From: Marsupella aquatica
Taxonomy: Eukaryota; Plantae; Marchantiophyta
Length of the DNA stretch: 64,000 bases
Reading direction: 5' to 3'
Assembly (NCBI GenBank): GCA_973895155.1
Contig: OZ316891.1
Location: 22,085,168-22,149,167, forward strand
The translations under genes were made by a program, and so were the position numbers. The number at the start of each line of letters is the position of its first letter. The first letter of the stretch is position 1. This document shows, piece by piece, positions 12,172 to 52,254 of this stretch. The notes under the pieces were generated by a model. The model did no database searches and was not told the origin of the DNA. It saw only the letters and a program-made list of their open reading frames with translations.

Positions 12172-12213
12172 TGAGGTACCAAAAACTGTCGGTCTTCTTC
12201 GTCCTCAATCTCC

Positions 12214-18906: not shown

Positions 18907-19224
18907 TCATTTTGGTGCAAATTATGTTAGAAAGAAACGAGAAAAATACCAATACTATTCTCCTATTTTCTCTCATGGTTCGTTACAAATATTGTTCTAG
19001 GGATAAGTCTGCCTGGCCTTTCATTATTGGTGACATTTTTCCTTAAACACTAGAATGGGCTTGTAAGTGTCACCATGCATTTTATGTGCCCAACTGTTCA
19101 CTCTTGCAGCAAATCCCACACTCCTCAAAATCCAATTGCCAACTGTACTTTCTGCTCATCTAACTTATGTTTGATAACACTTTCACTCAACATCACTCAC
19201 TATTGAAAATACTATGCAGCACAT

Positions 19225-19581
19225 TGTCATGCCGAGGGACAGTGCCTCTTATGCGCATCGGCATGTCCCTCGCATGCCCGCTAGGTATGTAGTTAGGGCT
19301 AGTGTACTACTTGAGTTAGCAACATATTCTTATAGCAAATTCCAGGCGTTCTTGAAACAAACGCGCTTGTTAGTGTGCCGCCAGGACTTTGTTTACTTAG
19401 GGCATGTCTTTCTTTGCCATTTCTCAGTTCTTCTTGAATCGCTGTTGACAGAGCTCAGACAGTGCTCGTCGGTTCCGTACACGGGATTCACACAGTGATT
19501 CGTTAGATGCTCCCGGCCGATCTTGGCATCTCGCCGATTTCGATTCGATTTCAGTACGCTTGTTTCTCTTACGCCTTTTAT
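19225..19581 (+). repeat. E1 repeat A1
   Basis: Matches 27826-28182 with about 10 mismatches counted by eye, all transitions. Confidence 0.95.
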
Positions 19582-19593
19582 TCAAGAAGAACT
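19582..19593 (+). promoter_or_regulatory. E1 putative self-priming primer-binding site
   Basis: TCAAGAAGAACT directly after A1 is the exact reverse complement of AGTTCTTCTTGA at 19426-19437 inside A1. Confidence 0.75.
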
Positions 19594-22500
19594 GCCAAGT
19601 TAGTGGTGAGGAGAAGAAGATTGCTCGTGGCAATTTCAACAATTTCTGATGAAGCTGGTGCAATTTCTATGGAAAAAATGCTGAGCGATGGGGTGGAAGT
19701 TATGACTTTGAGTGTATACACTTAAATCAAACAAGCCCCCCTCCCTCGTTTTCCTTTGTGTTTTTGCCCAGGCTTTTCTTTTCCGGCCGCAACCTGTTTC
19801 GCGACTTGCTGTTATCGATTGCCGCATCTACGCTGACTGCTGCATCGATGCCGATTGCACAGGGCGCACGCGCGCTTGCGTTTTTAACGACCTTTTTGGG
19901 GCCCTTTTTTGTTTACCGGCCATGACTGCCTCGGCCACCGCGCGCCCCTTTTCTTTGTCCTTTTTTGCCTTGCCAAGCCTCGAAGTTCCTCCCTCCGTTT
20001 GTTTTCCTGCCTTTATCTCGCAGGTTGTGCGTATAGGGCATTGTGCCTTCCACTGCCAGCATTTAATTAAGGAGAGGAGGGGGAGCAAGTACAAGCCGGG
20101 AGTCGAGGAGAAGGCACGGAGGCCTATGAGCATTAAAGCAGGGGGGAGGGGGAGCCGAGGCTGGAACGCAAGGAGAGGAGGGGGACTGGCAGGAGCGAGT
20201 GTGCCAAGAGAGGGCACGAGGCCCTATGCTGAATTAAAGAGGGGGAGTCCACATTCAATTCCCTTCTTGGGAGGCCCACAGTGCATTAACGAAGGGGGGG
20301 AGTTTACGTAGACTCCTTTCGGGAGTCCTCTTGCAGGGCACGAGGCCCCTTTCACAACATTAAAGAAAAGAGGGGGGGTACAATCGACTCCCTTCTCTCG
20401 GGAGTACTTTGGGAGCTCATACGGAGGGGGCGTGAAGCCCTATGCAGGGCTCATGCCAGTAAGAGGGCAAACACACTCGCCTTGGCTTCTCTCCTCTTTC
20501 CGGCCACCTGCGAGCCTGCCTCGACTATTTTCCCCTTTTTCGGCCTTTCTCATTTTTTTTGCCACGCCACGATCGACCTGCTGCCAGTTCCCGGGTCCAC
20601 ATAGGGCCGATGTGTATACACTTAGGGGGCCCCTTTCACGTGTTGCAGGGCCCATTTCTTTCCGTTTGCTCTTGCTTTGTTCTTGACTACCTGCATAGGG
20701 CACCGTGCCGGCCGGTCCTTCCTTTTTCGGGTCCACATAGGGGCCCGACGTATACACTTTAAAGGGGCCCAATGTATACACTTAAGGGGGACCCTATTCA
20801 CATTTTCAAGGGCCCATTCTTCCTTTATTTCTTTGATGCCGCCACATGTCATCTGCATAGACTTTGACAATTTCTCAGCGCTTACACATTCTACACATTG
20901 CTGCCTTGCACCGTTTGTTTCCTTTGTGGGTTTTATTTCTTAGCCTTGGGGCTGCCACTCCTTTTTCTTGTCAATTTCTTTCCCATTGGCACCCCGGGTG
21001 AGCATGCAGCATGTCAGCCGACGAGCCAGGAGGTAGCAGCTCATCACCACCAACACCCCGGTACCACTTACGGAGTGATCCACGACCCTTGGTGCCAATT
21101 TCATTGGAGTCTCGGCAATTTTGACGACGTCCGTAGACAGCAACAGCACCCACACCACGCAATCCTTCTGCTCAATTTGGCGGTTGCTTCACCACTACCC
21201 CGAAGCCTGCTATCACTTCCTTGCCATTTACGCCTTCTACATCAGTGGTTGTTCCAGCTTCACCGACATACACCATGGATGTTAGCCACTCATCTGGCCG
21301 CATTGAGAGCTTCAGCGGGCGGCCAGGCACTGTTTCTTTGTGTGAGTTCAAATCCACTTTCTACACTATCATTTACGAATTGGAGTTGAAGTACGGCAGC
21401 AATTTCACAAATGCTTTTGCATTTAAGCAGCTAGCTAGGTATGTGCACCATGAGGCTTTGGATGTGTATGAGCAACACTCTCAACGGCTGCTTGCTGTCA
21501 CACAATTGCCTAATCCTACCTATGCTAGTGCAATTGCAGCTGCCTCACAACTGGCATTACAGAATGCCGTTGCAGCCCATGCTGCTACTTCCCCTCCTAC
21601 TCCAATTCCTACCACTGCGCCAGTTACTCCCACTGTCTTGGCACAGGCTACATCAGGCATTTCTCCCACTATTGATTCCCCTGCCTTTGTTGATCCAGTA
21701 GCTGAGTTTTTCCAGGTTCTTGAATTGGAATTCCCAATCAAGAGTGCTGACAAAATCATGCAGTTGGCCACCTTTGTGAGGCAGCGCGATGAAACATTGA
21801 AGATGATGTATTGCCAGCTTCTCAAGCTGAAGGAGGACACCCAGAGCATCACTGACCTGGAAGTTGCTCATCGCTATCTTCGCGCATTGGAGGGCACACC
21901 AGCTCTCCATTTGCAAGTGTTGCAGCAAGTATTCTCAGAGTTTGGAGACAGCTACACCCTGCTCAATGTCTATGACACTGCTGAGAAACTTGAGTTGGCC
22001 CATGCACATTATGAGGCCAGTATTGCACATCCACCGCGATCCAAGTACCAGGCTGCTGCCCCTACACTGGCCACTCCTTCCCGTGTGCCACAATATGGTT
22101 CCAAGACCAAGCCAGCCCATGTTGCTTTCATGCTGCCATCTTGCAACTACTGTGGTAACCCCAATCACAAGGCTAATGAATGTGATATTGTTGTTGAGGA
22201 CCTGTCTTATGATTTTTGCGGGAAAGTGGGCCATTTGGAGGCAGTTTGTTTTGCCAAATTCCCAAAGAGGAAGCAGCTATGACAACAAACCCCTCATCCT
22301 GCTCCTGCTTCCACTCCCCCACCAGCTAGGAGGGCTCCTACTACATCAGTTGCTCCTCCTTCCAGTGGCAAAGCATCCAGTGCTAACAAATTGCCCAAGC
22401 AGCAACAGAAGCAACCAGCTCAGAAGGAGGCTCACAACGCACAGACAACTCAACTCCAGTCTCTGACTCATGAGGTTGAGTCATTACGTGCCCAACTTGC

Positions 22501-24049
22501 CAACATCAAAGGCAAGTCCACTGCCTCTGCTGGTCCTTCTCAACTGGCTGGTCACGTGCAACCCATCCCTGGCCCAGGCACCACTGACAGTTCAGCACCC
22601 ATACCCCACTCTTTCTATGGCTTGCCATTTGATGCTCATATGGGTGAGTGTGTGCTGTCCTCTGCTACACAGCCTGGCCTTACAGCAGAATTTTCAGATT
22701 CATTCTACCCTTCCTATTTTGCTTACCAACAGGCCAGTGCTGCCTCCCGTATTGCTCCCACACGCCGCATTGTACAGGCTGATGGTCTTGCTGCCGGTCC
22801 TATGACTAGAGCCAGGGGAGCTCGGGCTGTCATGCCCCAATCTTTTCAGCCACTCACACTTGCTGAAGAGAGCACCTTGTTGGTGAGGGGGGAGGGAGCT
22901 GCAGCTACATCCATTCCACCACCAGGTGCTACTGACATTTTACAGGGAGTTGTTTCTCCTCAGCTGCTTGAGCATTTCACCTCCGGTATGACACAAAGGA
23001 TTCTTACAACTCCACTTTTCAGTTGCCATGATTTACAGCTGGATGCTAGAGCTGTCATCAGAGCGCTAGAGGGCTCACTGCATTCTTCATCAGCCCTTGT
23101 GACACCAGTTTTGGAGGTCCAATCTTATGTACATACTGGACCTTCTTCTTCTCCATTACATGCTTCCACTGGTTTGGCTAACCCAGTACCAATTTCCAGT
23201 GGTAGTGATGACAGTATTGCTGCAGACTGTGTGACCAAAGCTACACTGGATTCTGGTCATGCTGCTTCATCATTTGCCAAAAGTGGTGCCTAGTGACAGG
23301 ACTTTAGTTTCCACCACCATTGCCATTGTTGACAACAGGAATTCAGCAGTCAAGTTGGAGGGTCACACTCCTCAGGTGGTCATGCTAGACACAAGCGCTC
23401 AACCAGTGATCTTGGGCATTTAGTTTGCCAAGAAGATGGGACTACTGACTGATCATTTACAGCGATCCAGGTGGCACATTCGGACTGCTAGTGGCACTAT
23501 GGAGGATGTGCTGGGTGAGAGTTCTACTTTACTCACTCTCACTTTTAATGGAGGTACAGATCAGGAACTGCATTTCCCAGTCAGATTTTTGGTTACCAAT
23601 GCCACTACGTATGATGTGCTCATTGGCCAGGAGGCTTTGTTCCCACCAGGTTTTACCATTGACAACTGGCATGAGCATGCATACTACAGAGTTGATTGGC
23701 ATACTGATGGCTCACACTTGGGCTACATTCCACTTGATTTTCATGGTGCCCATACACCTATGGCTCACCACTGTGTGTTGAAAGAAGTGCACACAGCTAC
23801 CTATGTCAACCACCCATTGCAGGATTGAATTGAGGAGGATGACGATGAGGTGGCTGTTGCACATGCTGCTACACGTATAGCAGCACTTTCCAGCAACGTG
23901 GATCATCAACCAGAGGTGGTACAATGGCTCCAAGCAGCCCATGGACCTTTAGTGGCTGCATTGCACAAATTTGAGGACCTTGGGCAGCACACTGGACAAC
24001 CAATAGCCCCAATCTTGAGCGCACCTGTTACATGGACTCCTCCTCCAGA

Positions 24050-24250
24050 TGGCCTTACATTGCTTGAGCTTTTTGGTGGCCTGGTTTATCGACATTCTAC
24101 CGGTACATGGGATGAACCTAGTCCTGAGGAAAGAGAACGGGCTATGGGCTTCCAACCCGGTACTACAGGTCACACCAAAATCACCAGGCTGGCCAGGAAT
24201 GCTTTACTTGGCAGGGTAATAGATCTCAATGCTCTCACTTGGCTTCTGGT
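24050..24250 (+). pseudogene. E1 remnant C5-DNA-methyltransferase (motif I fused to motifs IX-X)
   Basis: TLLELFGG|LVYRHSTGTWDEPSPEERERAMGF...LLGRVIDLNALTW aligns with the start and end of the E2 DNMT domain. Confidence 0.8.
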
Positions 24251-27200
24251 CACTTGCATCCTTTTTCAGATGTACATTCATCCAGCATCAGGAGTTCTAG
24301 CCCTACCACTCCATGGTGTTCTTACATGGCATCCAGACCAGGTGCACTTACCTCTATTCAACACTCACCGCTTCAGTCCAAGTGTTGGGGGGGAGGAGGT
24401 CCCTTGTAATGTGGCTGACATTATTTCTGAGTTTCATGGTGTGGATCAGACCAGAGCAACAAGTACAACAGGCCTTGGAGAGGCCTCATCACATTATCAG
24501 CAGCATGCTAGCAGCTTGGACAGTGGAGAGGCTGGCACTTCTGGCTCTTCAAGCACGAGTACATCAGGTCCTATTCCTAGTGTTGCGAACTACACATTCA
24601 TCATGGGCAACCACCTGAGTAAAAGGCAGAAGGACCAGCTGCTGAATTTGCTCCTCAAGCATGAGAATGTGTTTGCTTTCTCTATGAAGGACTTGGGTAA
24701 GTGCAAGACTATGCAGTTCTCCATTGAGTTGGCTGATGAAACACCTATCTTCAGGCAGAGACACCGTTTGAGTAAGCATGAGTGGCAGCTGGTGGATGAG
24801 AGGTGCCAAGAGCTCTATGAAGTTGGTCTTATTCAGCCATCTACATCAGATTTTGCGGCAGCTACAGTGATGCCAGCAAAGAAGGATTCCAGTGGATTGT
24901 GGACAGAGAAGCGCATGTGTGGGGACTACAGGCCATTGAACCTGGTCACACCCCAGGACAGGTACCCCATGTCGCGGCCAGAGGAGCTATTTGACAGCAT
25001 TGGAGACTCAGACATCTTCACTATTGTGGATCTAAGGCAAGGCTTCAACCAGATTTTGCTGCTTGCAAAGGACCGCAAGAAAACAACTTAATTTCCATGG
25101 TAGTAACCAACTATGGGAGTGGTTGGTGATGCCATTTGGCTTGAAGAATGCGCCCATATTCTTTCAAAGAGTCATGGACCAGGTTCTTCAAGGTGCTGAG
25201 TTTCTGAAATGCTACATTGATGATGTGTTGGTCCACAGCAAAGGATTTGACCAGCATCTACTTGACCTTGAGGAGCTATTCATGAGGCTTAAGAAGGTGA
25301 ACCTAAAGATACACCCCAAGAAGTGTGAATTTGCTGTCAGATCAGTAGTATATCTTGGGCATCGCATTCTTCCAAATGGAACCATGGCTCACTGGGCCAA
25401 GGTGGTATCCATCTTGGAAATGCCCACTCCTACCGATGTTCACACTTTGAGGCGTTTTATTGGGTTGTGCAATTACTACCGGATCTACATCAAAGATTTC
25501 AGTACCATTGCACACCCATTATGTGCTTTGTTGAAAAAGAATGTGACTTGGACATGGAGTGCACATGCTAAGGCAGCATTTGCCACTTTGAAGGAGAAGC
25601 TCTCAGAATACCCGGTGCTGAGAAGACCTGATTTCAGCAAGGTCTTTGTGCTACACACAGATTGGAGTGCCCTTGGGATTGGTGCCATTCTGGGCCAGCA
25701 TGATGAGGAAGGTAAAGAGTACGTCATTGCCTATGCATCCAGGAGCAACAATCAAGCAGAGAGTCATTATTCTTCTTATGAGGGTGAATGCCTTGCTGTT
25801 GTGTGGGCTGTCATACATTACAGGCCCTACCTCTATGGGACCAGGTTTGTTCTCTACACCGACCACCAGCCCTTGAAGTGGTTGATGACCAACGACAAGC
25901 TTACTGGCAAGCTTGCTCGTTGGGCACTCATACTCCAGGAGTATGATTTTGAGGTAATTCATAGGCCTGGTGTGACACATCAAAATGCTGACACTATGTC
26001 CCACAGCCCTTTGATTGCCTCTGATGATCCCTCAGATGCACGGCAGGATTTTGACCAGGTTTCCATCCTGCCTACATTTCATGCATCTACCTATCTTGCT
26101 TTGCTGCCATGCTACATCGTTGACCAACCTGTGGTGGACATATGGAAGGACAGCGACACTCTGAGATTTTTGTAGCATGGGGAGTACCCCACCCATGTTA
26201 CTGCTGCCCAGAGAGACCGAATTCAGTAAAGGTCCAAGCGCTACTTGTGGAAGGGAGATCATCTTGTGCGCTGCTTGCCAGACAGGGAAGTGGTGGTTCC
26301 ACCCATTCATGAGAGGGTTGGCCTTACCCGTAAGGTACATTCTGAGCTTGGTCATTTTGGTGTTAAGAGGACTTATAGCCTCTTGGTCCCCCATTATCAT
26401 TGGAAAGGCATGCATGGCCAGGTTCGAGATGTTATTGCCCGGTGTGAGCAGTGTGATAGGGTAAGGACTTCTTTCACATCTCGGCAACCCACACTTCATC
26501 CACTCCCTATTCAGGGCATGTTTTATTGTTGGTCATGTGATTTGGCTGGAGAATTACCCCTCACATCTTGGGGTAATCTCTACATCATGATCATGATAGA
26601 GCATTTCTCCAAGTGGATAGAACTTGTGGCATTGCCGGATAAGACCTCCCGTAGCACCAGCCAAGCATTCCTACAACAAGTTCTCAGCCGCTTTGGAGCT
26701 TGTGCAGAATGTCTCACTGACCAGGGCTCAGAGTTTAGAGGAGAGTTCCAGGAGCTGCTTGATCAGGCCCTCATTGATCATCGCTGGACATCACGAGATC
26801 ACCCACAGGCAGATGGCTTGGCAGAGCGCATGGTTCAGACATGCAAGAAGGGCCTTTGGAAGATCTGCCTCACCAAAAACAAGGAGGATTGGGACCTGGC
26901 CTTACCCTACATTACCATGGGGTATAGGATGTCTAGACATGCATCACTGTCTAACTTTTCTCCCTACTTCTTGTTGTTTGGTCGTCACCCAGTTCCACCT
27001 TCTGCTATTGCTGCTCACATGCTTCAGGTGGTGGACTTGGATTCAGCTGTGACTTGGTCTGATGTGATCTCTGAGAGGGCTGCCCTATTCAGGAGGGTTA
27101 TGCCCATGGCCATGGAGAATTTGGCCATTGCACAGCACAGGGACACATTGCATTATGCACACACACGACGGGGCACTTTTCAGCCCAAGGTCAGGAAGTT

Positions 27201-27455
27201 TGATGTGGGAGATTTTGTGTACTTGCAGCGGCAAGCTAACGACACCCTAGACACCTCTACCAGTCGTACTATTCTCAAGGTTAAAGCTATTCGACCGTCT
27301 GGAGTGCTGACAGGTCAAAGCGGTCGAATAGCGTCTGGAGTGTTGACAATAAGCGCATAATTGTTGACAATGCCAAGAACTGCGCCCCTTGTCATCTGCC
27401 TAACCTGGATCCCACCATTGTGACTTCTACTTGGATTCCACCTGTGGACTACCCT

Positions 27456-27590
27456 TGCAAAGTGTGTTTGCGAATTGATGATGCTGACCAGATGCTGCTG
27501 TGTGACAATTGCAATGGAGGGTACCATCTTTTCTGCCTTTGGCCTGAACTTACTCAGGTGCCAAAAGGATTATGGTTTTGCCCTTCCTGT
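27456..27590 (+). other. E1 PHD finger at integrase C-terminus
   Basis: CKVC...MLLCDNCNGGYHLFCL.P....PKGLWFCPSC is a canonical C4HC3. Confidence 0.92.
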
Positions 27591-27640
27591 GCTCCACGTG
27601 CTACCTGACTTTTCTTCAGCCCTCCTTTTGGCTGTGGTCT

Positions 27641-27647
27641 GGGGGGG
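27641..27647 (+). promoter_or_regulatory. E1 putative polypurine tract
   Basis: G7 immediately precedes the first base of repeat B1. Confidence 0.6.
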
Positions 27648-28358
27648 ATACAGAGGTTTACACCTCCACTACGTACATACCACCTCATTTGCTTTTTCTT
27701 GGCACTTGTAAATGTGATGAGACTTTTTCTATGCATGTTGGTTGCTAGCAGCTTGCACATGTGCATTGCCAGTGCTTTGTATGTTTTTGATACACTATGG
27801 CTACGATACTATATGTCACGACAGCTGTCATGCCGAGGGACAGTGCCTCTTATGCGCATCGGCATGTCCCTCGCATGCCCGCTAGGTATGTAGTTAGGGC
27901 TAGTGTACTACTTGAGTTAGCGACATGTTCTTATAGCAAATTCCAGGCGTTCTTGAAGCAAACGCGCTTGTTAGTGTGCCGCCGGGACTTTGTTTACTTA
28001 GGGCATGTCTTTCTTTGCCATTTCTCAATTCTTCTTGAATCGCTGTTGACAGAGCTCAGACAGTGCTTGTTGGTTCCGTACACGGGATTCACACAGTGAT
28101 TCGTTAGATGCTCCCGGCCGATCTTGGCATCTCGCCGGTTTCGATTTGATTTCAGTATGCTTGTTTCTCTTACGCCTTTTATATACAGAGGTTTACACCT
28201 CCATTACGTACATACCACCTCATTTGCTTTTTCTTGGCACTTGTAAATGTGATGAGACTTTTTCTATGCATGTTGGTTGCTAGCAGCTTGCACATGTGCA
28301 TTGCCAGTGCTTTGTATGTTTTTGATACACTATGGCTACGATACTATATGTCATGACA
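27648..28358 (+). repeat. E1 3' repeat block B1(27648-27823)-GC-A2(27826-28182)-B2(28183-28358)
   Basis: B1 and B2 are near-identical 176-bp repeats (atacagagg...tgtca(c/t)gaca). The junction reads GACA-GC-TGTC. Confidence 0.95.
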
Positions 28359-28459
28359 ACATTAAAATATTGGGCTAGTTCATTTTGAAAAGATTAACCA
28401 AAGTCCAAAGGGGTGAAAGCAAAGGTCTAAAGAGGACAAATCCCAACCTAAATGTCGAT

Positions 28460-28792
28460 TGTCACACCATTATGAGTGGTAGTATAGGATATCGGACTAT
28501 GTAGGTTTGAGGCTTTCATATGTGTGTTATCTAAGTATTTTAGGGTTAATGTATGTTTGTGAGGGATAGTTATATATCTCTAAGTTGTGTTGGCTCAAAG
28601 GTCTCATCTTTTGATGTTGAGCCTTTCGAGCACAAACTCTAGCGGCTATGGTGTGGCTGTCTAGGTTGTGTGTACGTAACGTGGATTCCTTGAGGCAGAA
28701 GGTGCGTTTGGCTTGACATAAGTGTGTGATCGCGTCGGGCAGGATTGTGTGTTGGATTAGCATCAATCATTGTTTGATTGCTCTTGAAGATT
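28460..28792 (+). repeat. E2 repeat A1 (contains TATATAT at 28571 and putative transcript start ~28606)
   Basis: Near-identical to 50747-51076. Confidence 0.95.
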
Positions 28793-28804
28793 ACATCAAA
28801 AGAT
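28793..28804 (+). promoter_or_regulatory. E2 putative self-priming primer-binding site
   Basis: ACATCAAAAGAT directly after A1 is the exact reverse complement of ATCTTTTGATGT at 28606-28617. Confidence 0.75.
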
Positions 28805-37659: not shown

Positions 37660-37850
37660 ATCCACAGCCCACGGCTTGTGGCCTCTCGAACTCCAAAGGA
37701 AAACATCACAGCTTCGATGGAGAGTCACAACCCACGGCTTGTGGCCTCTTCAACTCCAAATGAAGATGTCACAACTTTGAAGGAGAGTCACAGCCCACGG
37801 CTTGTGACCTCTTCAACTGCAAAGGAAGATGTCACAACTTTGATGGAGAG
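37660..37850 (+). repeat. ~63-bp tandem repeats in the DNMT-RT linker
   Basis: Three copies of caca(g/a)cccacggcttgtg(g/a)cctct...aactcc/tgcaaa...gtcacaacttt. Confidence 0.85.
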
Positions 37851-39038: not shown

Positions 39039-39395
39039 GGGTATTTACAAACGACAGAAAACAGCAAACAGTAACAGCAAACAGAAACTGGTAACAGGAA
39101 AATGAGTGGTAATTTTTTTTGAATTTTTTTTGAATTTTTTTTTTGGAGAAAAATTATTTTTTTTTTCAAATTTTCAAATTTTTTTTGCTAGCGCCCAAAG
39201 CTAGCCAAAAAATGTTGTAATTTAATTTTTTTGGGGAAAATATGACTTTTTAGAAAATATTTTGACATGGTTGTTTTTCTTGGTAATAGTAACTTTTTGC
39301 TGGTAACAGTAACTTTTTGTTGGTAACAGGAAAATTTTGCTGGTACCAATAAACCTGTTTCCTGTTTACTGATTTCTGTCACGCATGCCATACCC
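39039..39395. mobile_element. Mutator-like MITE
   Basis: GGGTAT...ATACCC termini with imperfect long TIRs. 9-bp TSD CTCAATTAG at 39030-39038 and 39396-39404. Confidence 0.85.
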
Positions 39396-42208
39396 CTCAA
39401 TTAGTGGGTTAAATTAGTTTTAGGTTAGAGTTTTTCTTTTTTGTTTTAGTAAGCATATTATGCCTGTAAATGAATGGGAAGTAGAAGTGAAATTGAAGTA
39501 AACTCTCTTCAGTAAAACAGAGTAAGAAAGTTTCATTAGTTTAAACCACGGTTAACTTAACAATGGATTAGTGGATTAGATAGGTAATCAGATCCTTAGA
39601 GTTTGTAATTTAGGCTGAGATTTTTTCTGAAGGTTCTAGGCAGGCCCTGGAGAACCCTTGTAAAAGTGCAAGTCATTTCGACCATTCAATTAGAAGCTAT
39701 TTACAGTGGAACAAAACTTAAAATAGCCAACTTGCAGGACGTAGGGGAAATAGCCAGAGAGCAACAAATGTATTTTGAAGGCTGGCCATGGTGTTACTAT
39801 ACCTAACACTATCCCTTAGAATTACTAAACCTAGTTTTGGACTTATAGATACTTTTTGGGAGTGGTCCGAATTCTGTAAAAGTAGCTATGAAGTATGACG
39901 GATTGCAGACTTTGAACAATTATAGAAAAGCCAAGTTTAGTTATATATCAATTCTAAGAATTGTTTTAGAAAGCTCTAGGACTAGGAAATCCAGGAGTAT
40001 GTTCATAATAGTTTTTTTTCCTTATGAGTGAATTTTGAACTATAGGCAAAGATGGCTAATGTTAAATGCCATAAGTAGCACTTAAAGGGAGACTTAAAGA
40101 GAGGAATGTTCTTTGTGCATACAAAGGGGTAATTCAGCTGCATAGAGAAACATGGTGGACTCATTTACATCTGTAAAGGGCAGGGTTACAATGTTAAAAA
40201 GCTAGCTAAGGCCAGGTGTCGAGCCCAAAATTCAATAGAGCAAAATCAAAGTAAAATTGAAGGGAGAATGGAACTCAACGCTGCGGCTGAATGGAGAGCC
40301 AATACTCCACCAAATCAAGTAAGAAGAACTGGGCTCGAATGCTGGGCTCAAGGAGAATCAGAAGACCTGAACTAGAAGAGGAAATCCTGGAGCACGAATT
40401 AAAGGAGGAGATTGAAGGGAAAGCAAAGGTTGGAAGGGAAATTAATAGAGAAGATTGAAATTTCTGAATCAGAGAGAATATTTTACAGAAAGGAGAAGTC
40501 ATTGACTGCTAACAAGGGGGCTCTTCAGGCAAAATCAAGGGCGAAATCAACTTGCACCTTCTATAGGAACTTAGAGGTGGCACCATGGAGCAGCTAGAAG
40601 ACCATTTCCTCAGCTAGGGCGATTGACAAGAAATCTGAGCTGTGGCCCTTAACTTCAGGAATTGAATGCAGGATCAAGTCCATAGATATATTCTGAAATT
40701 AGAATGACTGCTCTTTGGACTTCAGGAATTGAATGCAGGATCAAGTCCATAGGTATATTTCTGAAATTAGAATGGCTGCTCTTTGGACTCACAAATTGAA
40801 TGCTACCAAGGTCAACCGACAGTCGAGAGAAGAACACATGGAAGGGAAATATTTTCGTGAGAATGAAGGGCTGGTCTGAACGGAAGCACTGGCCAGACTT
40901 CCTTCAAATAACCCACGATCCCTTCAAAAAAGTTCAGTTCTCTAAGTCCTAGCTTAGTTCTCTCCTTGCTCCAAACTGAATCAGGCAGTCGACTCCGCCA
41001 TAGATTGGAAGCATTCATTCTCCTATTTCCATGAGTTCTTTCTCTCCGTTCACCCATGCACTTACTATCAAGACCAGGGCTTATATTTCACAGGAGTACT
41101 GGGCCTTTACGTTTGTAGTCTCACGGGGTTACTATTTGGCTTTATACACCTGAGTTTACACAGGCAGGGTCAGGCAAACCAAGTTTACACAAGTAACTAA
41201 GCCTTGAGATAAGGCTGACCCTAGTTTAAAGTGATGATATTGATGGGTTCTGCTGAAACCTGAATAACTCGCTCAGTTTAGACTCAATTGGAGTACTTTT
41301 AAATGCATTGGAAAGCTATTGACGGTGGCTAGAGGTTGGCATGAGCTAGGAGGATTGAGAGTTCATTAAGATTCTCCTGGAAATCAGGTTCTATAACAGT
41401 TTGATTTTTGCTGACTACTTGAGAGGTTTTGATCGTGGTTACACTCTAAAAGGAGGTCAAGTGGGACTACAATCAAAGTGCATGGCTGATCCCAGAGTTC
41501 CTGATCCAAGAGGGCTGCCTGATCAGCATTTTCCTCCCCTGGTCCACAAGGCTAAGTTCACCTTGTGGAGTAAGCATGGGAGAACACATGCTGACCCCAA
41601 CATTTGGCTGACCCAATACCTAGCTTGCTCAAAGGTGGACAGAGGGGCAGAAGTTCAAATTTGAGGGCTTTCACCAAGGTGTACCTCAAGTATTTCAGAG
41701 AGGACAACCAAATTACCAAGCCACTAACCAGTACGGTAAGGAAGTACCATGCTTGGGTCATTCGCAAGGCCCTAATCGGATGGGTGAGGCCTGGAGAATG
41801 GCTCTTTTATGTCAAGGGGACCTAGGCTGGTTCTGGAGTCCAGGAATAAGGAGGTTAAGGAGTGGAGTCCTTAAAGCCAACATGGAGGGTACCTAAGGAC
41901 CTGAGTTACATGGAGACTTTGGAGGAACTTGGAGGGCCATTGGAAGTTGATCCCTCTACTGTTTTTAGAGCTATTTGGTAGATAGGGATGACTGTATTTT
42001 GGAGGCTGATTTAGTCCCTGATTTGGAAGGATAGGACAGCCAAGTCAGGAGGTGAGGTGGACCTGAATGAAGGGCTGAAATCAAGGAGTTGATTTAGGCT
42101 TTCAAAAGGCCACCAACTAGCTCATTAGTTAGGTAAGACACACAAGTGAGTTAGTGAGTTAGTTAGGAGGATAAGTAAGGATCTTTGACCCCCTTGAAAG
42201 GTGGGCTA

Positions 42209-43043
42209 CCGTCTTCCCCCGAACACAACGCCGGGGTGCTATATTCGAATAGTGGGTCAAGGGGTGCTATATTTGAATAGTGCGCCCTAGGCGTTGTGTT
42301 CAAATTTTTTGACATGGTTTTGGATTTTTTTCACTAGTGGCGCTGTGTTCAAAAATGTCGTTGTGTTCAAAAATAGCATTGTGTTTGAGTTTGACGTTGT
42401 GTTTGAGTATAGGCCTTTGTGTACAAGGGTAGGAGATTAATGTATTGTGTAAGCACTAACTGAAGTCTTAAATAAAGTGTTTGCGAATGTGTAGGTAATT
42501 CAAACACTGAAATTACACAAGGGAAGCTAAGAGAACAGACCTTGCAAATCACAAGTACCATAAATTTATGACAATCAACAATATTCTAAAAATTGTTCCA
42601 AAACATCACTATTGTCAACTTAGTGCATGTCATACCATAATACAATTGTTTGGTTGCCTCAAACAATAAAAAATGCCTAACAGCACAATAAAATAACATA
42701 ACCAAGGAGACTTGGACAAGTTGTCTACTATGTGTTCTGAGCTTTTGCTTGATAAATTGTTGCTACATGCTGCAAAACCTATGGACTGCCTACTTCATTT
42801 GTTCAGTTTCAAATGTACACTACCTACCAAAATATGATCTCACATACAGCCAATGCCAACACTGTGCTGCGCCAACTTTGAAAGTATGTGCCAACTTCAA
42901 ACACAACGCCAAACTCAAACACAGTGCCCGGGCGTTGTGTTAATCCAATGCTGTGTTTGAATAAAAACCACTTTTTATTTTTAGGGCCCAAAAAAAGTCA
43001 TATTCGAACACAACGCCCGGGCGTTGTGTTCGGGGGAAGACAA
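42209..43043. mobile_element. Tc1/mariner(pogo)-like MITE
   Basis: TIR (cc)gtcttcccccgaacacaacgcc / ggcgttgtgttcgggggaagac(aa), flanked by TA on both sides, with internal subterminal repeats. Confidence 0.85.
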
Positions 43044-43727
43044 TAGTCTTTTTTTAGTGGTGAGTCACTTGCTGGCCTTTGGGGTGGTTTTGGACTTTGT
43101 GATGAGTTGGAGCCAAGCAAGGAGTACTTAAGTTGGTGTGAATTACTTTGTGTGGGTCCAAGTATAGAGAATCAAGTAGTAGCACTAAGAGACCTTAGGG
43201 GAACTAAGGTAGATGTTCTAGGGGTACTAGAACTCAAGTGTGTGCCTTGAGGCTTGAAAGGACCATAGTGTTAAGTAGTAGGAGTTGAAGAAGCTAAAGT
43301 ATAGCAAGTAGGTAGTGACAACCTACCCATGTACTTCCTTTGAAATTCTTATGAAATTTCAGCGCGTTTTTGGGAAAGAAATTGTTGATGTGCACTCATC
43401 TGAAATTTTGAGGCCCTTGTGGTCTAGCATGTTGCTCATATATGATCTTTGTGAGTCCAGAAGTCTTCTCTTTGGGTAGGGGAGACCTAGATTAGTTGTC
43501 TTGCCGGGTAGGGTCACATTTCCAATGGTGGAAACCAAAGAATACCCATTTCTGGTGACGAAAACCAAATACATCTGCATAGTCTCAAGGAGAAGCAAAG
43601 GCTTAATGGAAATAGAGGTAGTTTTTTCTTATGGAGCGTCCCTCTCGTAGTTCATGGTGATAAAGAGCTATCAAGTGCAAGCTTTTAGTACAATAAGGCT
43701 TATTAGCTCAGAAGCAAGGGTCTGACA

Positions 43728-45921
43728 CATATGCCAGTAGATCAAACAATTCAGCAGAGGCTAAGTATAGCTCGTATGAGGGAGAGTGTTTGGCAGTTGT
43801 GTGGGCTGTGGCACATTTCCGTTGCTATTTGTTTGGTAATCCGTTCACCTTGATCACTGATCACCAGCCCCTCAAGTGGTTAAGGGAGTCTAACAAGCTT
43901 ACAGGAAAGCTTGCACGATGGGCATTGTTGTTACAAGAGTATGATTTCCTCGGGGGTTTCACTTCCACAAAAATGGCATATCACGTGCAACAAAGGATAG
44001 GGTCATTTTATTGGTTCTAAGGGAAGACTTAAGAATTTTTTGTAGAAGAACAATAGGGTCTTTTAAATTTAATTTTGAGACTTATAAGAACATTAGGGTC
44101 TTTTTAATTCAATTTTTAGAATATTCCAAGAATATTCCAACTTTATAGGGGTTAAAAAATAAAAATAAATTCTTACATTTTAGGGGGTCCGAGGCCTAAA
44201 AACGTCGCAGGCGATGGGGAGGTCCCCATATAGTGAGACCCCCGAGATGATTTCCAGGTTGTACATAGGCCTGGTAAAGTGAACTTGGATGCGGATGGGT
44301 TGAGCCGTAATCCATGTACCAGTCAAGAGGATGAGACTGGAGCTCGATGGCATGATGAGTTGGATAAGGAGAGTGTGCCAGGATGGCATGCATCTGCCTT
44401 TCTTTGTTGGGTTCCAACATATAGTGGATCTATGGACTCTACTTCATTGGATGGGGTAGACGTTGAGTCTTCAGATATGGATGTTGATGAGGTAGTTTTT
44501 GGGCAGCAAGATATTCAGATCCATTGTTGGCAATTGTGATGCTAAAGAGCAAGATAGGGTTCTACAATGAGCCAAGAGGTTTTGATGGGAAGGAAACCAT
44601 CTTTTGAGGATACTACGTGATGGCAAGGTGTTGGTTGTACCAAAACCGTCACAACGAGTACGTTTGGTGTGACATGCGCACAAGGAGTTGGGTCACTTTG
44701 GTGTGAAATGCACATATAGCTTGTTGTAGACACAGTATTGGTGGTGTGGTATGCGCACTGATGTCCAACAATTGATTGCTAAGTGTGTGGTATGTGATCG
44801 AGTGCGAGCATCGTTCAATGCTCCCACTCCCCAATTGCATCTGTTATCCATAATGGGTTTGGGATATTGATGGAGTTTGGACTTTGCTGGTCCATTACCT
44901 CTTACCCAACGTCACAATCGATATGTTTTGGTTATGGTGGAGCACTTTTCCAAGTGGATTGAACTAGTGGCATTGCCAGATAAAGCTAGTGGAGGAGTGG
45001 CTATCACATTTTTGGATCAAGTACTCAGTCATTTTGGAGCACCAGCTGAGGTGTTGACTAATCAGGGCATGGAATTCCGTGGAGAGTTTGAGGGTTTGTG
45101 TGAGCAAGCTCTTATTGATCATCGTACTATTTCTTGTGATCATCCTGAGGCAGATGGATTGGCAGAGAGAGTTGTACAAACCGTGAAGAGAGGAATCTTG
45201 CGTAAGTATGGCTTGCAGGTTGGTCATTTGGGAGATTGAGATCTCCAGCTACCTTGGTTAGCTATGGGCTACCGTTTCAGTCGACAAGCATCACTTGCAT
45301 CCTTCTCACCTTATTTCATGCTCTATGGTATAGAGAGCCAGATTTGCCAACGACTATTCGTTGTGATGTGGCAATTGTTGTGGATTTGGATGATCCCGAT
45401 GTTTGGGTCAAGATGTGTTCCAAAAGGGCACGAGTTTTTGAGAGAGTCATGCCCATGGCCTTTGACAACCTTGCCATTGCCCAACATTGTGATACTTTGA
45501 GGTATGCCACTATTTACAGAGGAGGTTATCGTGCGAGGATTTGACAGTTTCATCCTGGTGATTTGTTTATTTGCAGCAAACAACACCCACAACACTTGAT
45601 GTGACCGCAGGTCGGACAATCTTACGTGTGCGTGAAGTGTTGTCTTCTGGTGTCCTAATGTTGGAAGGACGTGATGGTATGGTTTGGAAGGATCATGTAC
45701 GTAATTGTGCACCATGTCATCTTTCAAACATTGATGGTACAGTAGATCCAAGCTTGGCTCAAGTTCATGCCGGCTTGAAGTGTATGTTGTGTGGATCTGC
45801 TCAAGGAGCAGCCACTATGTTGATTTGTGATAAGTGTTCTAGAGGATGGCACATGTCGTGTTTGACACCACCATTGGAGGTGATTCCTAGTGGATCATGG
45901 TTGTATCCTCAATGTCGGTGA
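43728..45921 (+). pseudogene. E2 RNaseH end-integrase-PHD region
   Basis: Motifs YEGECLAVVWAV, TDHQPLKW, HKELGHFG..CVVC, DFAGP, EHFSKWIE, PEADGLAERVV and PHD CMLC...LICDKCSRGWHMSCL.PP...PSGSWLYPQC (45781-45915). Confidence 0.92.
43949..44246. mobile_element. hAT-like MITE
   Basis: TIR ctcgggggtttcact / agtgagacccccgag with 8-bp TSD ATGATTTC. Removing it restores QEYDF-QVVHRPG. Confidence 0.88.
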
Positions 45922-46094
45922 AGCCGACTAGTTACCATTTGTGTTCTCATGGAAAGTATAGATTGCAGGAAGGTGATCGATGGGGCTCACTTGCACCCGG
46001 CCTCCTGATCTTCACACTTAAAAAGGTGTATATCAACCTTGTAGAACTTATGGCTAGCTAGAGTTAGGGGACCTCACTCCTAGCTAGGGGGCCG

Positions 46095-46231
46095 ATTGTG
46101 GGTTTTGGACATGTGTGGATAGGAGTTCCACTTACACTCCATTCTCTTATGTTTGTGATGTTGATTGTGACTATGCTTAGATATGTGTGACAAGCGATGT
46201 ATATTGTGTAGCGATGTTTATGCGCACGACA
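46095..46231 (+). repeat. E2 repeat B1
   Basis: Matches 51078-51214. It is preceded by AGGGGGCCG and followed by GC. Confidence 0.95.
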
Positions 46232-46234
46232 GCT

Positions 46235-49200
46235 TGTCACCTGCTTATCAAACGATTTACACGACAAGTACGTATTTACTCCTACTAAAATTGTTTGTTA
46301 TCGTATGACGGGAACGTGGAGAGACGCTATTAGGATTCTATTGCATGTAGGATGAGTATGTTTATTTCCGCTCCCGGAAATGTAATTTTTGATCAAGTCT
46401 ACCGACTAGTTGCTCTGCTTTTGATTAAGTCCCATGGACTAGGCCACACACACACTCCTACTGGCCGTTGGTGGAGTGCTGTCACCACCCCTCCTACTCA
46501 TAGGGTCGACCAAACCGTGCAAGGATTCCTTAGACACTTCTTGGGGAAAGAACACAATCTTGAACCAGGAAAGATAATGCCACACCAAAACTTGAGGAAT
46601 CAAACCAAATCCATATCTTTTGGCAAAACGTCGTAACACATTGCAAGGACAACCCGGCCTCCTACCGTCTGCCCAACTACTGCCTCACTGGGCAAGTGCT
46701 ACACCTCTACCTCACTACTCTGGCTTGATTCCCCTTTTCTCGCTATGAGCTAACTTCCGGAAACAAACACTAGACTGAGTCCCCCCCAACTACTTCGGGG
46801 CTCTCCCCTAAATACCAAAAAAACACACCAAAGCACCCCTCATGGGGCCACAACGATGGCGGCTTACCCTAGCGGCGCCGCTAAACCCTTCACTAAGAAA
46901 CCCCTAAACTAAAATCATGTGGCACACACATGCTTCTAAAACCCTAACCCTAAACTAACAATGGGGCCGGCGGTGCCTTCGACGACGCCCCAACATTACT
47001 CCGTGAACCGTGAAATTGCAAAGAACCCAACAATGGCCGAAACCAGGTGACCTTCCACTTGAACTTCTGAGTTCACCCCTGGATAGCCCCACTCTTCCTG
47101 ATCATGAATCACTCAACCGCTCTTGAAACGGACATCGGACGACCAAGTTATGGCCGTTTCAGTATCCCGTAAACCCAACTTTGTCGGGCCCTAACTTGCT
47201 CATCCTGGCTCCGTTTGAGGAGCGCTGCCTCTTGTTGGGATCAGCTCCACGAGCTCTTTCCAACAAGCCCATGAGTGACCCCTCACAAAAAGTGGGAAAG
47301 TCAAGGGGCCGTACAACCACGTCCGTACGACCACTCTAATTCTCCTCCTCTTCACTCACGGTGCCCTGGTTTGAGCCCCGTGAGTGGGCCTCCTCATCAC
47401 TCTCCACTGGAGTGAGTGCCACTTCACCCCTCCTTTTCTTCACCGGGGTACTCCTAGTGCTAGTGCTCCCCTGCTTCCTCAAATTGGCCAAGGCTTGCCA
47501 CGCTTTGATGTACCCCTCACCAATGGTGTCCTTCCATAAGGCCGCCTCTTCACCGGACCGCAAAGTCTCCAACGGTAAAACCTGCCCGGTGGCCATGGGA
47601 GTCCTAGGGGTGACAGATCGGGGTGGCATCCCCGTGTTGACCTGAGCCTCCCGTAACGATTTACGTACCTCCCTAAGCTTCTTCTCTAAGTTCTTGCTCT
47701 TCTCTTGACTCTTCTTGGCTGTATCCAACAGGGGTCCATACTTCCCATTGACTTCCTTCACCACCATCTCAATGGCCCTGGAGATCAAATCTGGGGAAAG
47801 TGTGGAACTAGGTGTGCAGGGGCTCTTCCGTTTCCCCAGACTCAAGGCCTCACTCCTCTTAGCCCTTGTCTCAAAGATCACCATTTGACTCCGTAGTGCT
47901 CCCACCTGGGCTCTTAACTCCACCACCTCTCCAGAATTCTGCTTCTCTTTGGCCAATGCTTGTTTCAATACTCCAACCTCTTCCGCTTCCTTGGCCTTGG
48001 TGGACAAGGCTCCCTTCAAGTTGGAGATCTCTACGTGAGCTGCTTGGAGAAGCTTAACCTTCTCATGAATGGCCTCCTCCCTCGCCTCCTCCTTGGCCTT
48101 GATCACCTCCTTCATAGATAGGGCACTCTGCTCCAAAGTCTCTACTCTGGCGGTGGCCTGCTTGAGAGAATCTCTCAATGCGTGGACTAGCTTGAGTCCC
48201 TCATGGACTCCCTGCCGGAAATCCCGTAACTCCGCCAGGTAGACATCAGGAATGTCGTAGACCAGGGGCTCCTCCGGATCTCCCACAAGTGATTCAAGCC
48301 ACTCCAATGTGGAGTCCTCATCCTGGTTTTCTTCCCCTCTATTATCATCCCCAACCGCCGATGATGATCCCTCTGTTAGTTTCCCCAAGATGGTAGTGGC
48401 AATACTCCTGATTTCCGTGGTAAGGGATGATCCAGAGTCTTCCTATCCTGGGAAAATAATCCACCCTTCTGCTCTGGCCAGCAAAAATGACCCCATCAAA
48501 TGTACAACCCCACCTGGTTTCACACTCCCGGGATTGGCGTCCAATAGCTTCTTCAACCCGTAGTACCACCATCCGTACACATGGGCTGGATAGTTCTTGA
48601 TGTCCATAGCTACCACGAAATGCTCTCCATTCACCACCCCGGATTGCACGTTACCAAGGATCCATTGATGAACCTTGGCCATAAATCCCTTGTGCTCAGC
48701 ATCTCTGACGGCGGAAAGAGGAATGGAAGTAGTGGAGGTGGGATTAATCACCCAACCGGCCACCATTGTCAACGTGAGCTCTCCCCTTATGTTCTGAGGT
48801 GTGAATGAGAATTGCTGGTTCTCCAGAAACAAAAGCTTAGCTAACTCCACATGGGGCACTACCCGTTGGAGACATTCAAAGTAGATTCCTTCCTTGCGTA
48901 ACTCCATCCCGGCCTCAATGTTCCAATTCTTCCCCGAAGGGATTGTAATCTCCACCTTCATGAACTCCGTGAGCCCGGTGGCCAGAAAAATATTCCTACA
49001 ATCCTCCATCACCTTGGCGGAGGTTTTGGGATAAATTTGACGGAAAACCTTCCTACTCACTGGTGCAGAACTTGCCGCCAGTCCAGTACTCATTGTAGCT
49101 TCTCTCTCTTCTCTCTCTCTTGCAATCCCCTGGGGAATCACTCGTCGGATTCTTAGAACCACGTGCAAACAAATGAAGGCTATTTAAAATCCTACCCAAT

Positions 49201-50742
49201 TAATAATTATAATCACAAATTTGTAATGAAGGGGATTAATTAACTCCTTATCTCAAATTATTTTTATTTCTATGCAAGGGTATTACCACATAGTGTATGC
49301 CACGCGTCACCAGCTGATTGGTCCACGTGTCACTTGCTTAGTGTAGGTCATTTATTAGTAGTTTAATTTTTTACAATGGTATTAGTTGTTAAAGTAGGAA
49401 CTATACATGTGCACTTGATCATATCTTAGTAGTGCATACACGATACTTTATAAAGACACAAGGGGTTTTACAATGAGTTTCCAATGTACTTATAAATGAC
49501 TCAAGGGTATTTTTAATATATTGAAAATTATTTATTACATTTTTCAAGGGCCTTTTAAATTTTCCATATGACAATTAATAAGGGGTATATAACATGTAAG
49601 TGTTCACAGGGGTATTTGGAGTTTTAGCCTAAGTGATTCCCCAGGGTTGCAATCAATGTCTCAACGTAGTCACGGTAAGCAACCTTGTATCTCCAAATGC
49701 GTGCCGCACTAAACTCCGGTTGATCCAACATCCATGCATCCAAAAATCAAATCCTCAATTACCAATTCCCGTCACCCGTAGCAATGTCAATTCCCTGGCC
49801 CGAAACGGCCCCCGTATCCCGATCAATCAATTACCCTCAATTCCCCGAGAAGCCACTCCGTGCTGCTGCCGCTAATGCCTGGAAGAATCATGCCAACAAG
49901 CCCCAACAATTGACCATGAGAAAGAGCTTCCAGAATAATTGCAAAATGTGGAGAGAGCTTTTGGCAAGAGTTGAGAGAGAGCCCGAGTTTTTGCTTTCGG
50001 CAATGAGTGGGCCTTGCAAAAGGGAGGGAGTGAGAAAATAGGAAAAAAAAGGAAACCCCGTGGCTCCCTCACGCCATGCGCCCTGGCTGCCCTAGTACCC
50101 TGGCTCGTGGGAGGGTTTAATACCCCCCCCTCCACTCACGGGAGAGTCGAGGGGAGAGTTAAGACTCCCCCTCCCGACTCCTTCCTCCTTTTTTTTCTTT
50201 GGCTGCGGCCTGGTTGCTCTGGCTCCAGCTTGCCTCGGCTCGCCCCGGCTGCCCTGGCTTGCGGCGCTCCTCCTTTCTCGCGGCGCTCCTCTTTTGCTTG
50301 CGGCGCTCCTCCTCGCAACTGCGCCTTGCCTCCTACTTTCTTCGTGGCTGGTGGGCTTGCGGCCCTATGCAGGGCTCGCGGCCCTCTCCTCCGTTCATTC
50401 GCGGGGCGCTCCTCTTTTCTCGGGGCACTCCTCCTTTCCTCGGGGCGCTCCTTCTTTCCATGCACCCCGGCTGCCCTTATGGAGATGCTAGGTGGCATCC
50501 ACAGGGGATGCCCTTTACAATGGTTCAAGCGAAATGGCTAGGCCACCATTGCCCCCCTAGGTTGTTGTGACCGTTTAGAACAATTTTGAGAAGGAAATAA
50601 AGTAAAGTCCTCCTAGCAGCACCAACTTGAAAGGACGGAATTAACTCAAAAATAAAAAAATGGCTTATTTACAATGGTTATTTACATGGCACAACCCAGT
50701 AGACAATTATTGAGAATTTTCGGTGACGGGGACCCTGTCACA
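46235..50742. mobile_element. 4.5-kb TG...CA insert (solo-LTR-like) inside the E2 B1-GC-A2 junction
   Basis: Reads TGTCACC...TGTCACA with a perfect 5-bp TSD CAGCT (46230-46234, 50743-50747). Removal restores GACAGCTGTC. Confidence 0.88.
47336..49094 (-). pseudogene. ~585-codon antisense ORF (globular N-domain, acidic linker, coiled coil, basic NLS-like tail) with one in-frame stop
   Basis: ORFs 48443-49168 and 47336-48388 are in the same frame, separated by one TAG. The C-half is heptad-rich and has PVKKRR near the C-terminus. Confidence 0.65.
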
Positions 50743-50746
50743 CAGC

Positions 50747-51214
50747 TGTCACACCATTATGAGTGGTAGTATAGGATATCAGACTATGTAGGTTTGAGGC
50801 TTTCATATGTGTGTTATCTAAGTGTTTTAGGGTTAATGTATGTTTGTGAGGGATAGTTATATATCTCTTTGTGTTGGCTCAAAGGTCTCATCTTTTGATG
50901 TTGAGCCTTTTGAGCACAAATTCTAGCGGCTATGGTGTGGCTGTCTAGGTTGTGTGTACGTAACGTGGATTCCTTGAGGCGCAAGGTGCGTTTGGTTTGA
51001 CATAAGTGTGTGATCGCGTCGGGCAGGATTGTGTGTTGGATTAGCATCAATCGTTGTTCGATTGCTCTTGAAGATTTATTGTGGGTTTTGGACATGTGTG
51101 GATAGGAGTTCCACTTACACTCCATTCTCTTATGTTTGTGATGTTGATTGTGACTATGCTTAGATATGTGTGACAAGCGATGTATGTTGTGTAGCGATGT
51201 TTATGCGCACGACA
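50747..51214 (+). repeat. E2 3' repeat block A2-B2
   Basis: A2 equals A1 (28460-28792) and B2 equals B1 (46095-46231). Confidence 0.95.
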
Positions 51215-52254
51215 CGATATTTAAGCTTTGGCCATGCCCGGGACTGTTGCGGGTGAGGGCAACGGTCATGACTGGTCGGGCATTGAATGAGAGGCCAGAC
51301 CAGTCACGCCCGGAACTGTAAGAGGTCCTAAAGTTTTGAAGGAATACTCGTGCATACATTGTGCCGCGACCCCACTCATATTTCAGTACCCAATAAAATT
51401 ATCGCCCGGTTGTACCTTGTTGCGGTGCACCCAAGTGCCTTGCGGGCTGTCCGTGAGGTGCCATTTCTTCTGTATATGAGACACCCTAGTAACTTATTAT
51501 TGACATTGCATATTCCTGGGGTCTTCCTTTTCTTGGCATCCAGGCTTTGGCTTGAGCTCTCATTCATAAACCCATAGCACATTTGTCCAACTAGAAGAAC
51601 ATGCTTGCTTAAACAATGCTTAAACAATGCATTTTACTATGACGTATCATCCGAAATGACCTACAAAGCTAAAAAGGGGTCCAGGTGGCCAGTAGAAGGG
51701 GAGCTGTAAGGGTGGCTGGCAGGGAGCCCGGGTGATCCGCTGTACCCCCGCCCATCCCCGTCTAAATTAAGATCCCCGTCTATGCCCCTCCACCTACCTG
51801 ACCCATGCTTTCGGCAGAACTGACCGCATCGTCGCTAGCTCACTCAATCTATATGGCTTGAGGTCTCGGTTTGCTATGCCATAACACCCTGCGTAGCCAA
51901 ATGGTTGATTAGGGGGTCTCAATTATTCGCCCGCGTGCCCATACGGGCTGCCCGGTTAAGGCACAAAACGGATGTCCACCAAAAGGGTGCGGGCGTCCGA
52001 AACCCTGGTCATCACACATCCGGCCCCGGAGCCAACATTGTCCTGTGACCGTTTGGCACCCGGTCGCAACTTGCCTTACCTCCCTCCCCGCTCCTGCCTC
52101 TCCTCTCCCAAACCCGATGGTCCCAGGGCAACGTTGAGCACACCGTGTGTGCAAGCTGCTTCATCGAATGCCGAACGTTGCTCTGTCAAACGTTGCTCTA
52201 GCTATGGCTGCTTTGTGAATTCCCAACGAATTTGGTCTGTTGCCTTGTGAGACT

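Follow-up and report, generated by a model that had tools for sequence, protein, structure and literature searches.

Split-repeat Gypsy retrotransposons in a liverwort and in green algae: insertion ends inside the predicted copied repeat and a candidate integration route through end-joined LTRs

A 64,000-nt window of the liverwort Marsupella aquatica (contig OZ316891.1 of assembly GCA_973895155.1, positions 22,085,168 to 22,149,167; coordinates below are those of the window) carries two long terminal repeat (LTR) retrotransposons, E1 and E2, with split repeats. Both are decayed, dead Gypsy copies with a DDE integrase, and both read A-internal-B-GC-A-B between 4-bp target-site duplications (TSDs). 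Inserted copies of this kind start and end at a conserved CA-GC-TG palindrome that lies inside the repeat. The copied repeat itself is predicted to be B-GC-A, with the attachment (att) site in its interior. Such elements very probably integrate by internal cutting combined with end joining, in one order or the other. Judged from the genomic copies, end joining probably comes first and is followed by an integrase cut biased towards the 5' site. We cautiously favour the broader view that a Gypsy radiation of the green lineage, spanning Chlamydomonas and liverworts, has shifted its integration ends to mid-LTR, uses an obligatory end-joined 2-LTR circle and has its 5' palindrome picked by timing.

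The layout was first proposed in a sequence-only reading of the window, and self-BLAST confirmed its coordinates, the TSDs (ACAT and CGAT), the TGTCA start and GACA end of both elements, the GC spacers and the G-tracts (Table 1). The two A copies are 97.2% identical in E1 and 96.4% in E2, and the two B copies 98.9% and 99.3%. The GC spacer occupies 27824-5 in E1 and 46232-3 in E2, and a G-tract or purine tract stands directly ahead of B1 in each. Contigs of runs X2 and X5 join 19219 to 28360, giving the empty site of E1 with a single copy of the target.

The sites from which DNA synthesis would start place the boundaries of the copied repeat elsewhere than at the insertion ends. The 13 bases 3' of A1 in E1 (15 with two A bases) pair with 19425 onward, and the 12 bases 3' of A1 in E2 pair with 28606 onward; 0 of 2000 shuffles of A gave such a match for either element. 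Neither primer-binding site (PBS) begins with TGG, so self-priming rather than tRNA priming is predicted. The primer site expected after A1 is thus present, although it is of the self-priming type, with 12-15 nt of pairing inside A. Visual inspection of 6 elements showed a TATA-like box about 30 nt ahead of the predicted transcript start in 5. Because the PBS follows A and the predicted polypurine tract (PPT) precedes B, standard reverse transcription predicts a linear [B-GC-A]-int-[B-GC-A], where int is the internal region. The PBS next to A and the G-tract next to B thus support the earlier view that the reverse-transcription LTR is B-GC-A with att inside. The A/B joint falls precisely where the two ends defined by reverse transcriptase (RT) would meet.

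Related loci, numbered L below, are the 80 best among 536 confirmed matches of a metagenome scan (16 of the collection's 64 parts). Removal of 9 duplicates and of 8 loci with no B in view left 63 distinct loci. After the G-tract, 28 of these read B-xx-A(-B) and 35 have a single B; among the 28, L001 and L023 run into contig ends, and L018 and L060 carry partial deletions. Scoring of both ends was possible in 11 full and 8 single-B loci, 19 in all, L060 being excluded as rearranged. A 4-bp TSD with at most one mismatch flanks 15 of the 19, against a cross-pair null of 0.108, and an exact one flanks 9, against 0.009; among single-B loci the count is 7 of 8. The layout with its 4-bp TSD therefore recurs throughout the family, as had been anticipated. 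Conventional A+B LTRs at both ends, which would have contradicted the proposal, were not found: B is upstream of A1 in 0 of 19 loci (the check extended to 600 bp at most, and to 158 bp in L029).

The two junctions of the B-GC-A-B end behave differently. The B1/A2 spacer is 2 nt long in 27 of 27 loci (L055 is deleted there), and its letters are AC in 11, AT in 6, GC in 4, GT in 3, AA in 2 and TC in 1. Most variants fit decay of GC, perhaps through deamination at methylated CAG/CTG. Of 26 A2/B2 joints, 13 are exact and 1 has a substitution. The remaining 12 contain indels: -2 in five loci, -1 in three, +1 in two, and -3 and -7 in one each. Indels thus mark 12/26 A/B joints versus 0/27 B/A joints (Fisher p 3.6e-5), and they are more frequent than in the background, where 4923 bp show 28 indels (binomial p at most 3e-8). 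The length of the A1/PBS border is constant in 19 of the 20 loci shown. A table of the run contigs lists no A/B junction indel, yet some pieces that cross the joint are gapped, and the table is uninformative on scars. The predicted variability of the A/B junction is therefore borne out in the related loci, as would be expected of end joining. Identity between A copies is 0.882 within an element versus 0.823 between elements.

The same arrangement extends to algae, where the GACAGCTGTC att core is present again. Four contigs (L081-L084) that had been binned with prokaryote genome assemblies, but are likely algal contamination, encode integrases 47-55% identical and keep ACAGCTGT about 50-105 bp downstream of a G-tract. 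The palindrome is perfect over 20 bp in L083, and L082 reads B-GC-A-B with two identical Bs. The motif was not found in L085 and L086, whose contigs continue for no more than about 740 bp beyond the integrase match. In the Chlamydomonas repeat library (supplement of PMC9940879), whose entries are taken as internal parts by file order, the internal parts of Gypsy-2a, 2b, 6, 7a and 7b end in B followed by gc. This B is a copy of the last 8 or about 50 bases of the LTR, and is only 8 bp in Gypsy-2 and Gypsy-7. Gypsy-14a reads A..G-tract-B-gc-A-B, and Gypsy-1 ends conventionally. In the part of that library covered, gacagctgtc occurs 11 times, and a G- or C-tract stands at about 50 bp from 9 of these matches. 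Several of its families, among them the laboratory-active Gypsy-7a_cRei, share the CA-GC-TG joint of E1 and E2. Among other candidates, L128 proved to be a chance match to the motif, and a scan of viral contigs gave no relatives among 39 pattern matches.

The coding content is that of Gypsy elements. E1 retains a broken gag and a pol with RT, RNase H (RH), an H2C2-rve integrase and a PHD finger by Pfam, and E2 retains DNA methyltransferase (DNMT), RT, RH, rve and PHD matches. The integrase triad is D104-D164-E199, with D,D(35)E spacing, and the best PDB matches of the E1 integrase are the Ty3 and foamy-virus integrases (IN). As in Ty3/Gypsy elements, the pol order is protease (PR)-RT-RH-INT with a Ty3-like RT and integrase, the integrase is of the D,D(35)E type, the termini are TG..CA and the TSD is in the 4-6 bp range. 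Two full identical LTRs, with the PBS by the CA end and the PPT by the TG start, are lacking. The PBS instead adjoins A, with no CA, the left end has no B in E1, E2 and the fetched loci, and the PPT lies 50-175 bp upstream of TG in the window and the fetched loci. The E2 DNMT matches PF00145 (E 5e-12). The E1 DNMT is a remnant, about 250 codons of the core being missing at 24078-24083 relative to L081 (tblastn); other E1-like copies likely keep the core, because run contigs diverge at 24080. L081, a relative with long open frames, reads PR-DNMT-RT-RH-INT, and its DNMT has DNMT3A/B/C as top PDB matches (E about 6e-8). A lone in-frame stop at 3489-3491 separates its PR-DNMT and RT-RH-INT frames in a pol that is otherwise open; it is either read through or a mutation. 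Read as a circle, L081 runs PPT-B-GC-A-PBS; this would suit a 1-LTR circle, but it may be an assembly collapse and was not counted.

Named homologues come from Calypogeia (85% identity), Klebsormidium, Closterium, Riccia and Marchantia, together with a protein labelled Tetstr1, which we read as Tetraselmis. In an integrase tree that is midpoint-rooted and carries a long-branch warning, E1 and E2 fall in separate subclades of one clade with 100/99 support that holds 34 of 44 rows, including a K. nitens DNMT-RT-RH-INT protein (P0170).

The steps that would produce such copies can be set out as follows. The RNA would begin in A1 and end in A2, and its 5' end would prime the minus strand at the PBS; in Gypsy-7a, a tRNA would serve instead. 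Reverse transcription would yield the linear complementary DNA (cDNA) described above, with ends that lack TG/CA. Integrase would then commit to the att of the 5' repeat, which would become double-stranded right after the second strand transfer, before the plus strand has crossed some 8 kb. Joining of the A end to the B start would follow. A nick after CA on each strand would leave 2-nt 5' overhangs, and insertion would take place with a 4-bp stagger. GC would be missing from both termini because the nicks on both strands leave these overhangs. In vitro, foamy-virus IN cuts a palindromic LTR-LTR junction in this manner, after CA on both strands with a 2-nt 5' overhang (PMC1180852). A-int-B-GC-A-B would be the only product with the repeat region R at both ends, able to copy again. 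A copy with a single B would be a dead by-product, which may stem from a 1-LTR circle, from double cutting or from recombination between B1 and B2. A choice between the two att sites by the element's own DNMT was considered and is needless, the Gypsy-7a legend listing no DNMT. Cutting at a cryptic att was likewise set aside as the cause of B ends 15 nt short (L024, L034), since the uncut B1 is equally short in L004, L046 and L072.

Several points weigh against this mechanism or narrow it. It is deduced from genomic copies; the related loci are old copies from few metagenome assemblies, and the locus ends used for TSD scoring were set by hand. The identity of B is 0.896 within versus 0.870 between elements and the own partner ranks first in 5 of 11, a weak signal of a same template. 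Self-priming of at least 10 nt is retained in only 6 of 17 old related copies, and E1 is the exception among the six elements inspected for a TATA box, with no clear one. Single-B copies, which are interspersed with full copies in the tree, are the more numerous class (35 versus 28), and no greater age could be detected for them (median terminal branch 0.075 versus 0.066, p 0.37); their number and age indicate that other products form often. The heaviest point concerns the choice of att. Since the two att sites of a 2-LTR circle are identical, cutting without bias would yield both forms equally often. The reciprocal A-B-GC-A-int-B was found in 0 versus 11 A-int-B-GC-A-B among the loci examined (two-sided p 0.001), so the 5' site must be favoured and unbiased cutting is rejected. 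The timing of double-strand formation may be the simplest cause of this bias. The sequence-only proposal of a 2-LTR circle cut within the 5' LTR therefore keeps its internal att and its end joining but needs a bias as an addition, and joining before cutting is the probable rather than the established order. Of its two predicted alternatives, A-int-B was found and is even in the majority (35/63), but A-B-GC-A-int-B was not.

The strongest competitor reverses the order of events. Integrase would engage the 5' att on the linear cDNA and insert both halves, with host repair sealing A2/B2 and no free circle. The same layout, TSD and scars are expected, the same timing argument covers the bias, and L060 retains just a B2 stub. 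On the other hand, 13 of 26 A/B joints are exact. The free B arm of 8 bp in Gypsy-2 and Gypsy-7 would need holding and seems too short for it, which favours joining before cutting; these short arms are the only feature that may discriminate in its favour. We consider the cut-first order rather unlikely.

Joining without host ligation is less likely still. Reverse transcriptases have clamp and terminal-addition activities, which could allow a jump between cDNA ends inside the particle to make the A/B joint before the internal att cut. In E1 and related loci the dinucleotide AT closes A and opens B, so that 5 of the 12 scars, being 2-nt losses, fit microhomology, and the 2 scars that are +1 additions suit the same enzyme. 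Both AT copies are nevertheless kept in 13 of 26 joints, A and B have no such dinucleotide in common in L082 and Gypsy-7a, and host microhomology joining yields identical scars. A jump of this kind is improbable.

A circle cut equally at either att, with the reciprocal form later reduced to single-B by A-A recombination, would draw on the greater length of A (about 300 bp) over B (about 175 bp) and on the frequency of single-B copies with a TSD (7/8). It demands that one form be lost completely (0/19) although 11 copies of the other survive, and the single-B class is not detectably older. We regard it as very improbable.

The repeat order is identical to that of PAT and Ngaro elements, as PMC5890265 notes, and a tyrosine recombinase, possibly acting in trans, might be proposed for these elements. 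No tyrosine recombinase match by Pfam was found in the ORFs scanned, which were 128 of the 153 open reading frames (ORFs) of at least 70 aa in the window (the others lie mostly in repeats or opposite other ORFs) and 8 of 18 in L081. The varied 4-bp TSDs, TG..CA ends, loss of GC at both ends and conserved DDE triad further speak against it, so that this explanation is already largely refuted and hardly credible; the earlier attribution to a DDE integrase holds. Rearrangement of ordinary A+B elements after insertion, or assembly artefact, appeals to the resemblance of A2B2 alone to a TG..CA LTR and has next to no probability; it is refuted because the layout recurs in two window families that differ from each other, in 28 distinct related loci, in L082 and in Chlamydomonas entries that were curated, and by the 0 of 19 A1 copies in a B-containing left end, with the PBS adjoining A.

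The layout itself is in print. For an rve element it was on record before the sequence-only reading, since the Fig. 4c legend of de Mendoza et al. 2018 (PMC5890265) describes the repeats of KnitGypsy-Dnmt3 of Klebsormidium nitens as in DIRS, in the order A-coding-B-A-B. That element resembles E1 and E2 in its DIRS-like repeat order with Gypsy domains, and resembles E2 and L081 in its Dnmt3-related DNMT within a Gypsy pol, of which E1 keeps a remnant. P0170, a candidate for KnitGypsy-Dnmt3, may link that element to E1 and E2 through the integrase clade. The published account, in the parts that concern the element, gives no att, spacer, TSD, priming or mechanism, and 'target site' and 'circular' are absent from its main text. 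Gypsy-7a_cRei (Craig et al., PMC9940879) is a PHD-bearing Gypsy whose internal part ends in purine tract-B-gc; its 2023 legend gives a left LTR without the last 8 bp of the right LTR. It differs in its 8-bp B, its PBS starting with TGG (tRNA type) and a legend without a DNMT, is likened here by layout and not by integrase kinship to E1, and comes with no discussion of mechanism in the sections on this element. A 2026 preprint mentions Gypsy-DNMT3 in passing where it touches on the subject. No description of an internal att or of an end-join route was found in the literature searched, which left Repbase Reports, theses, subscription journals and bioRxiv supplements outside; the mechanism thus appears undescribed.

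Each component of the proposed route has a counterpart elsewhere. Foamy-virus and HIV-1 IN act on 2-LTR circle junctions that are palindromic (CA-NN-TG), with a cut on both strands and 2-nt 5' overhangs (PMC1180852, PMC4372172). There, as these reports describe it, the end join creates the att and the product is a normal provirus, whereas the att of E1 and E2 is copied as an internal part of the repeat, the join falls in another sequence that tolerates variation, and the elements would depend on this route. In IS3, IS30, IS21 and IS256 a DDE enzyme also inserts from a junction of abutted ends on a circle, but these DNA transposons owe the junction to their transposase and involve no reverse transcription (PMC9333248, PMC3299598). 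Predicted self-priming, in E1 and E2 by sequence complementarity, is shared with the Tf1/Sushi and Tcn1 chromoviruses, which have a chromodomain and conventional LTRs where E1 and E2 have a PHD after the integrase and split repeats (PMC6317226). Split direct repeats in the order A-int-B-A-B also link E1 and E2 to PAT, Ngaro and TOC1, from which they differ in their DDE integrase with PPT, PBS and 4-bp TSD. PAT, Ngaro and TOC1 integrate via a tyrosine recombinase.

Table 1. Features of E1 and E2 in the window
Feature	Position	Strand	Evidence
E1 left TSD ACAT	19221..19224	+	self-BLAST; empty-site joint
E1 A1, predicted transcript start/self-primer at 19425	19225..19581	+	self-BLAST, complementarity
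E1 self-priming PBS, pairs with 19425 onward	19582..19594	+	0/2000 shuffles
E1 gag, broken; weak zf-CCHC match under Pfam cut-off	21137..23293	+
E1 protease region and DNMT remnant	23328..24269	+	tblastn
E1 RT and RNase H, two broken frames	24588..26175	+
E1 integrase (H2C2, rve, D,D(35)E)	26230..27360	+
E1 PHD finger after integrase, other frame	27366..27602	+	PF00628 E 4e-12
E1 G-tract, predicted PPT	27641..27647	+	sequence
E1 B1	27648..27823	+	self-BLAST
E1 internal palindromic att joint GACA-GC-TGTC	27820..27829	.
E1 A2	27826..28182	+	self-BLAST
E1 B2; 28182/28183 is the inferred joint of two cDNA ends	28183..28358	+
E1 right TSD ACAT	28359..28362	+	self-BLAST
E2 left TSD CGAT	28456..28459	+	self-BLAST
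E2 A1; TATA-like box about 30 nt ahead of predicted start 28606	28460..28792	+
E2 self-priming PBS	28793..28804	+	complementarity
E2 pol, decayed: DNMT 36649-37014, RT, RH (split by ~39016-43727 insert), rve, PHD	35780..45918	+
E2 purine tract, predicted PPT	46086..46091	+	sequence
E2 B1, then GC	46095..46231	+	self-BLAST
Later 4.5-kb insert in E2 att joint, TG..CA, TSD CAGCT (5 bp)	46235..50742	.
E2 A2	50747..51076	+	self-BLAST
E2 B2; one extra/changed base at A2/B2 joint	51078..51214	+	self-BLAST
E2 right TSD CGAT	51215..51218	+	self-BLAST

Further features of the two elements and their surroundings were recorded. E1 and E2 are 101 bp apart (28359-28459). The left flank of E1 (18587-18891) resembles 39061-39371 at 67%, so E1 likely inserted in an older repeat. 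The 5' untranslated region of E1 (19655-20914) is covered at far lower contig depth than the remainder of E1, which hints at leaders specific to subfamilies; depths are sums of contig depths and were unused for copy ratios. The insert within the E2 att palindrome is possibly a solo giant LTR, and its minus-strand ORFs (47336-49183) have no Pfam match at E 0.001. Besides the insert that splits RNase H, another at about 31500-35390 lies within the E2 gag and carries minus-strand ORFs at 32478-33889. Elsewhere in the window, a 10-kb duplication of 98.5% identity (19-9946 and 53426-63385) carries an ORF with TPR/HAT repeats, and a Kelch-repeat ORF lies near it at 10738-12204. Among the related loci, L071 has a solo A-B unit on the minus strand with a near-matching 4-bp TSD (6060-6526), L049 a B-GC-A-B end from a second family (3785-4298) and L060 a head-to-head A pair (3035-3571).

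Retrovirology has long asked whether LTR circles formed by end joining can serve as true intermediates of integration; they are usually treated as dead ends. The lineage described here is common to liverworts and green algae, and it shows that split direct repeats need not mean a tyrosine recombinase. LTR finders that require two full LTRs would likely miss such elements or set their bounds wrongly. Gypsy-7a_cRei is naturally active in a model alga, with 86 new insertions recorded in one laboratory strain (PMC9940879), so the question is directly testable. The genomic copies are consistent with a lineage that would rely on end joining and internal integrase cutting.

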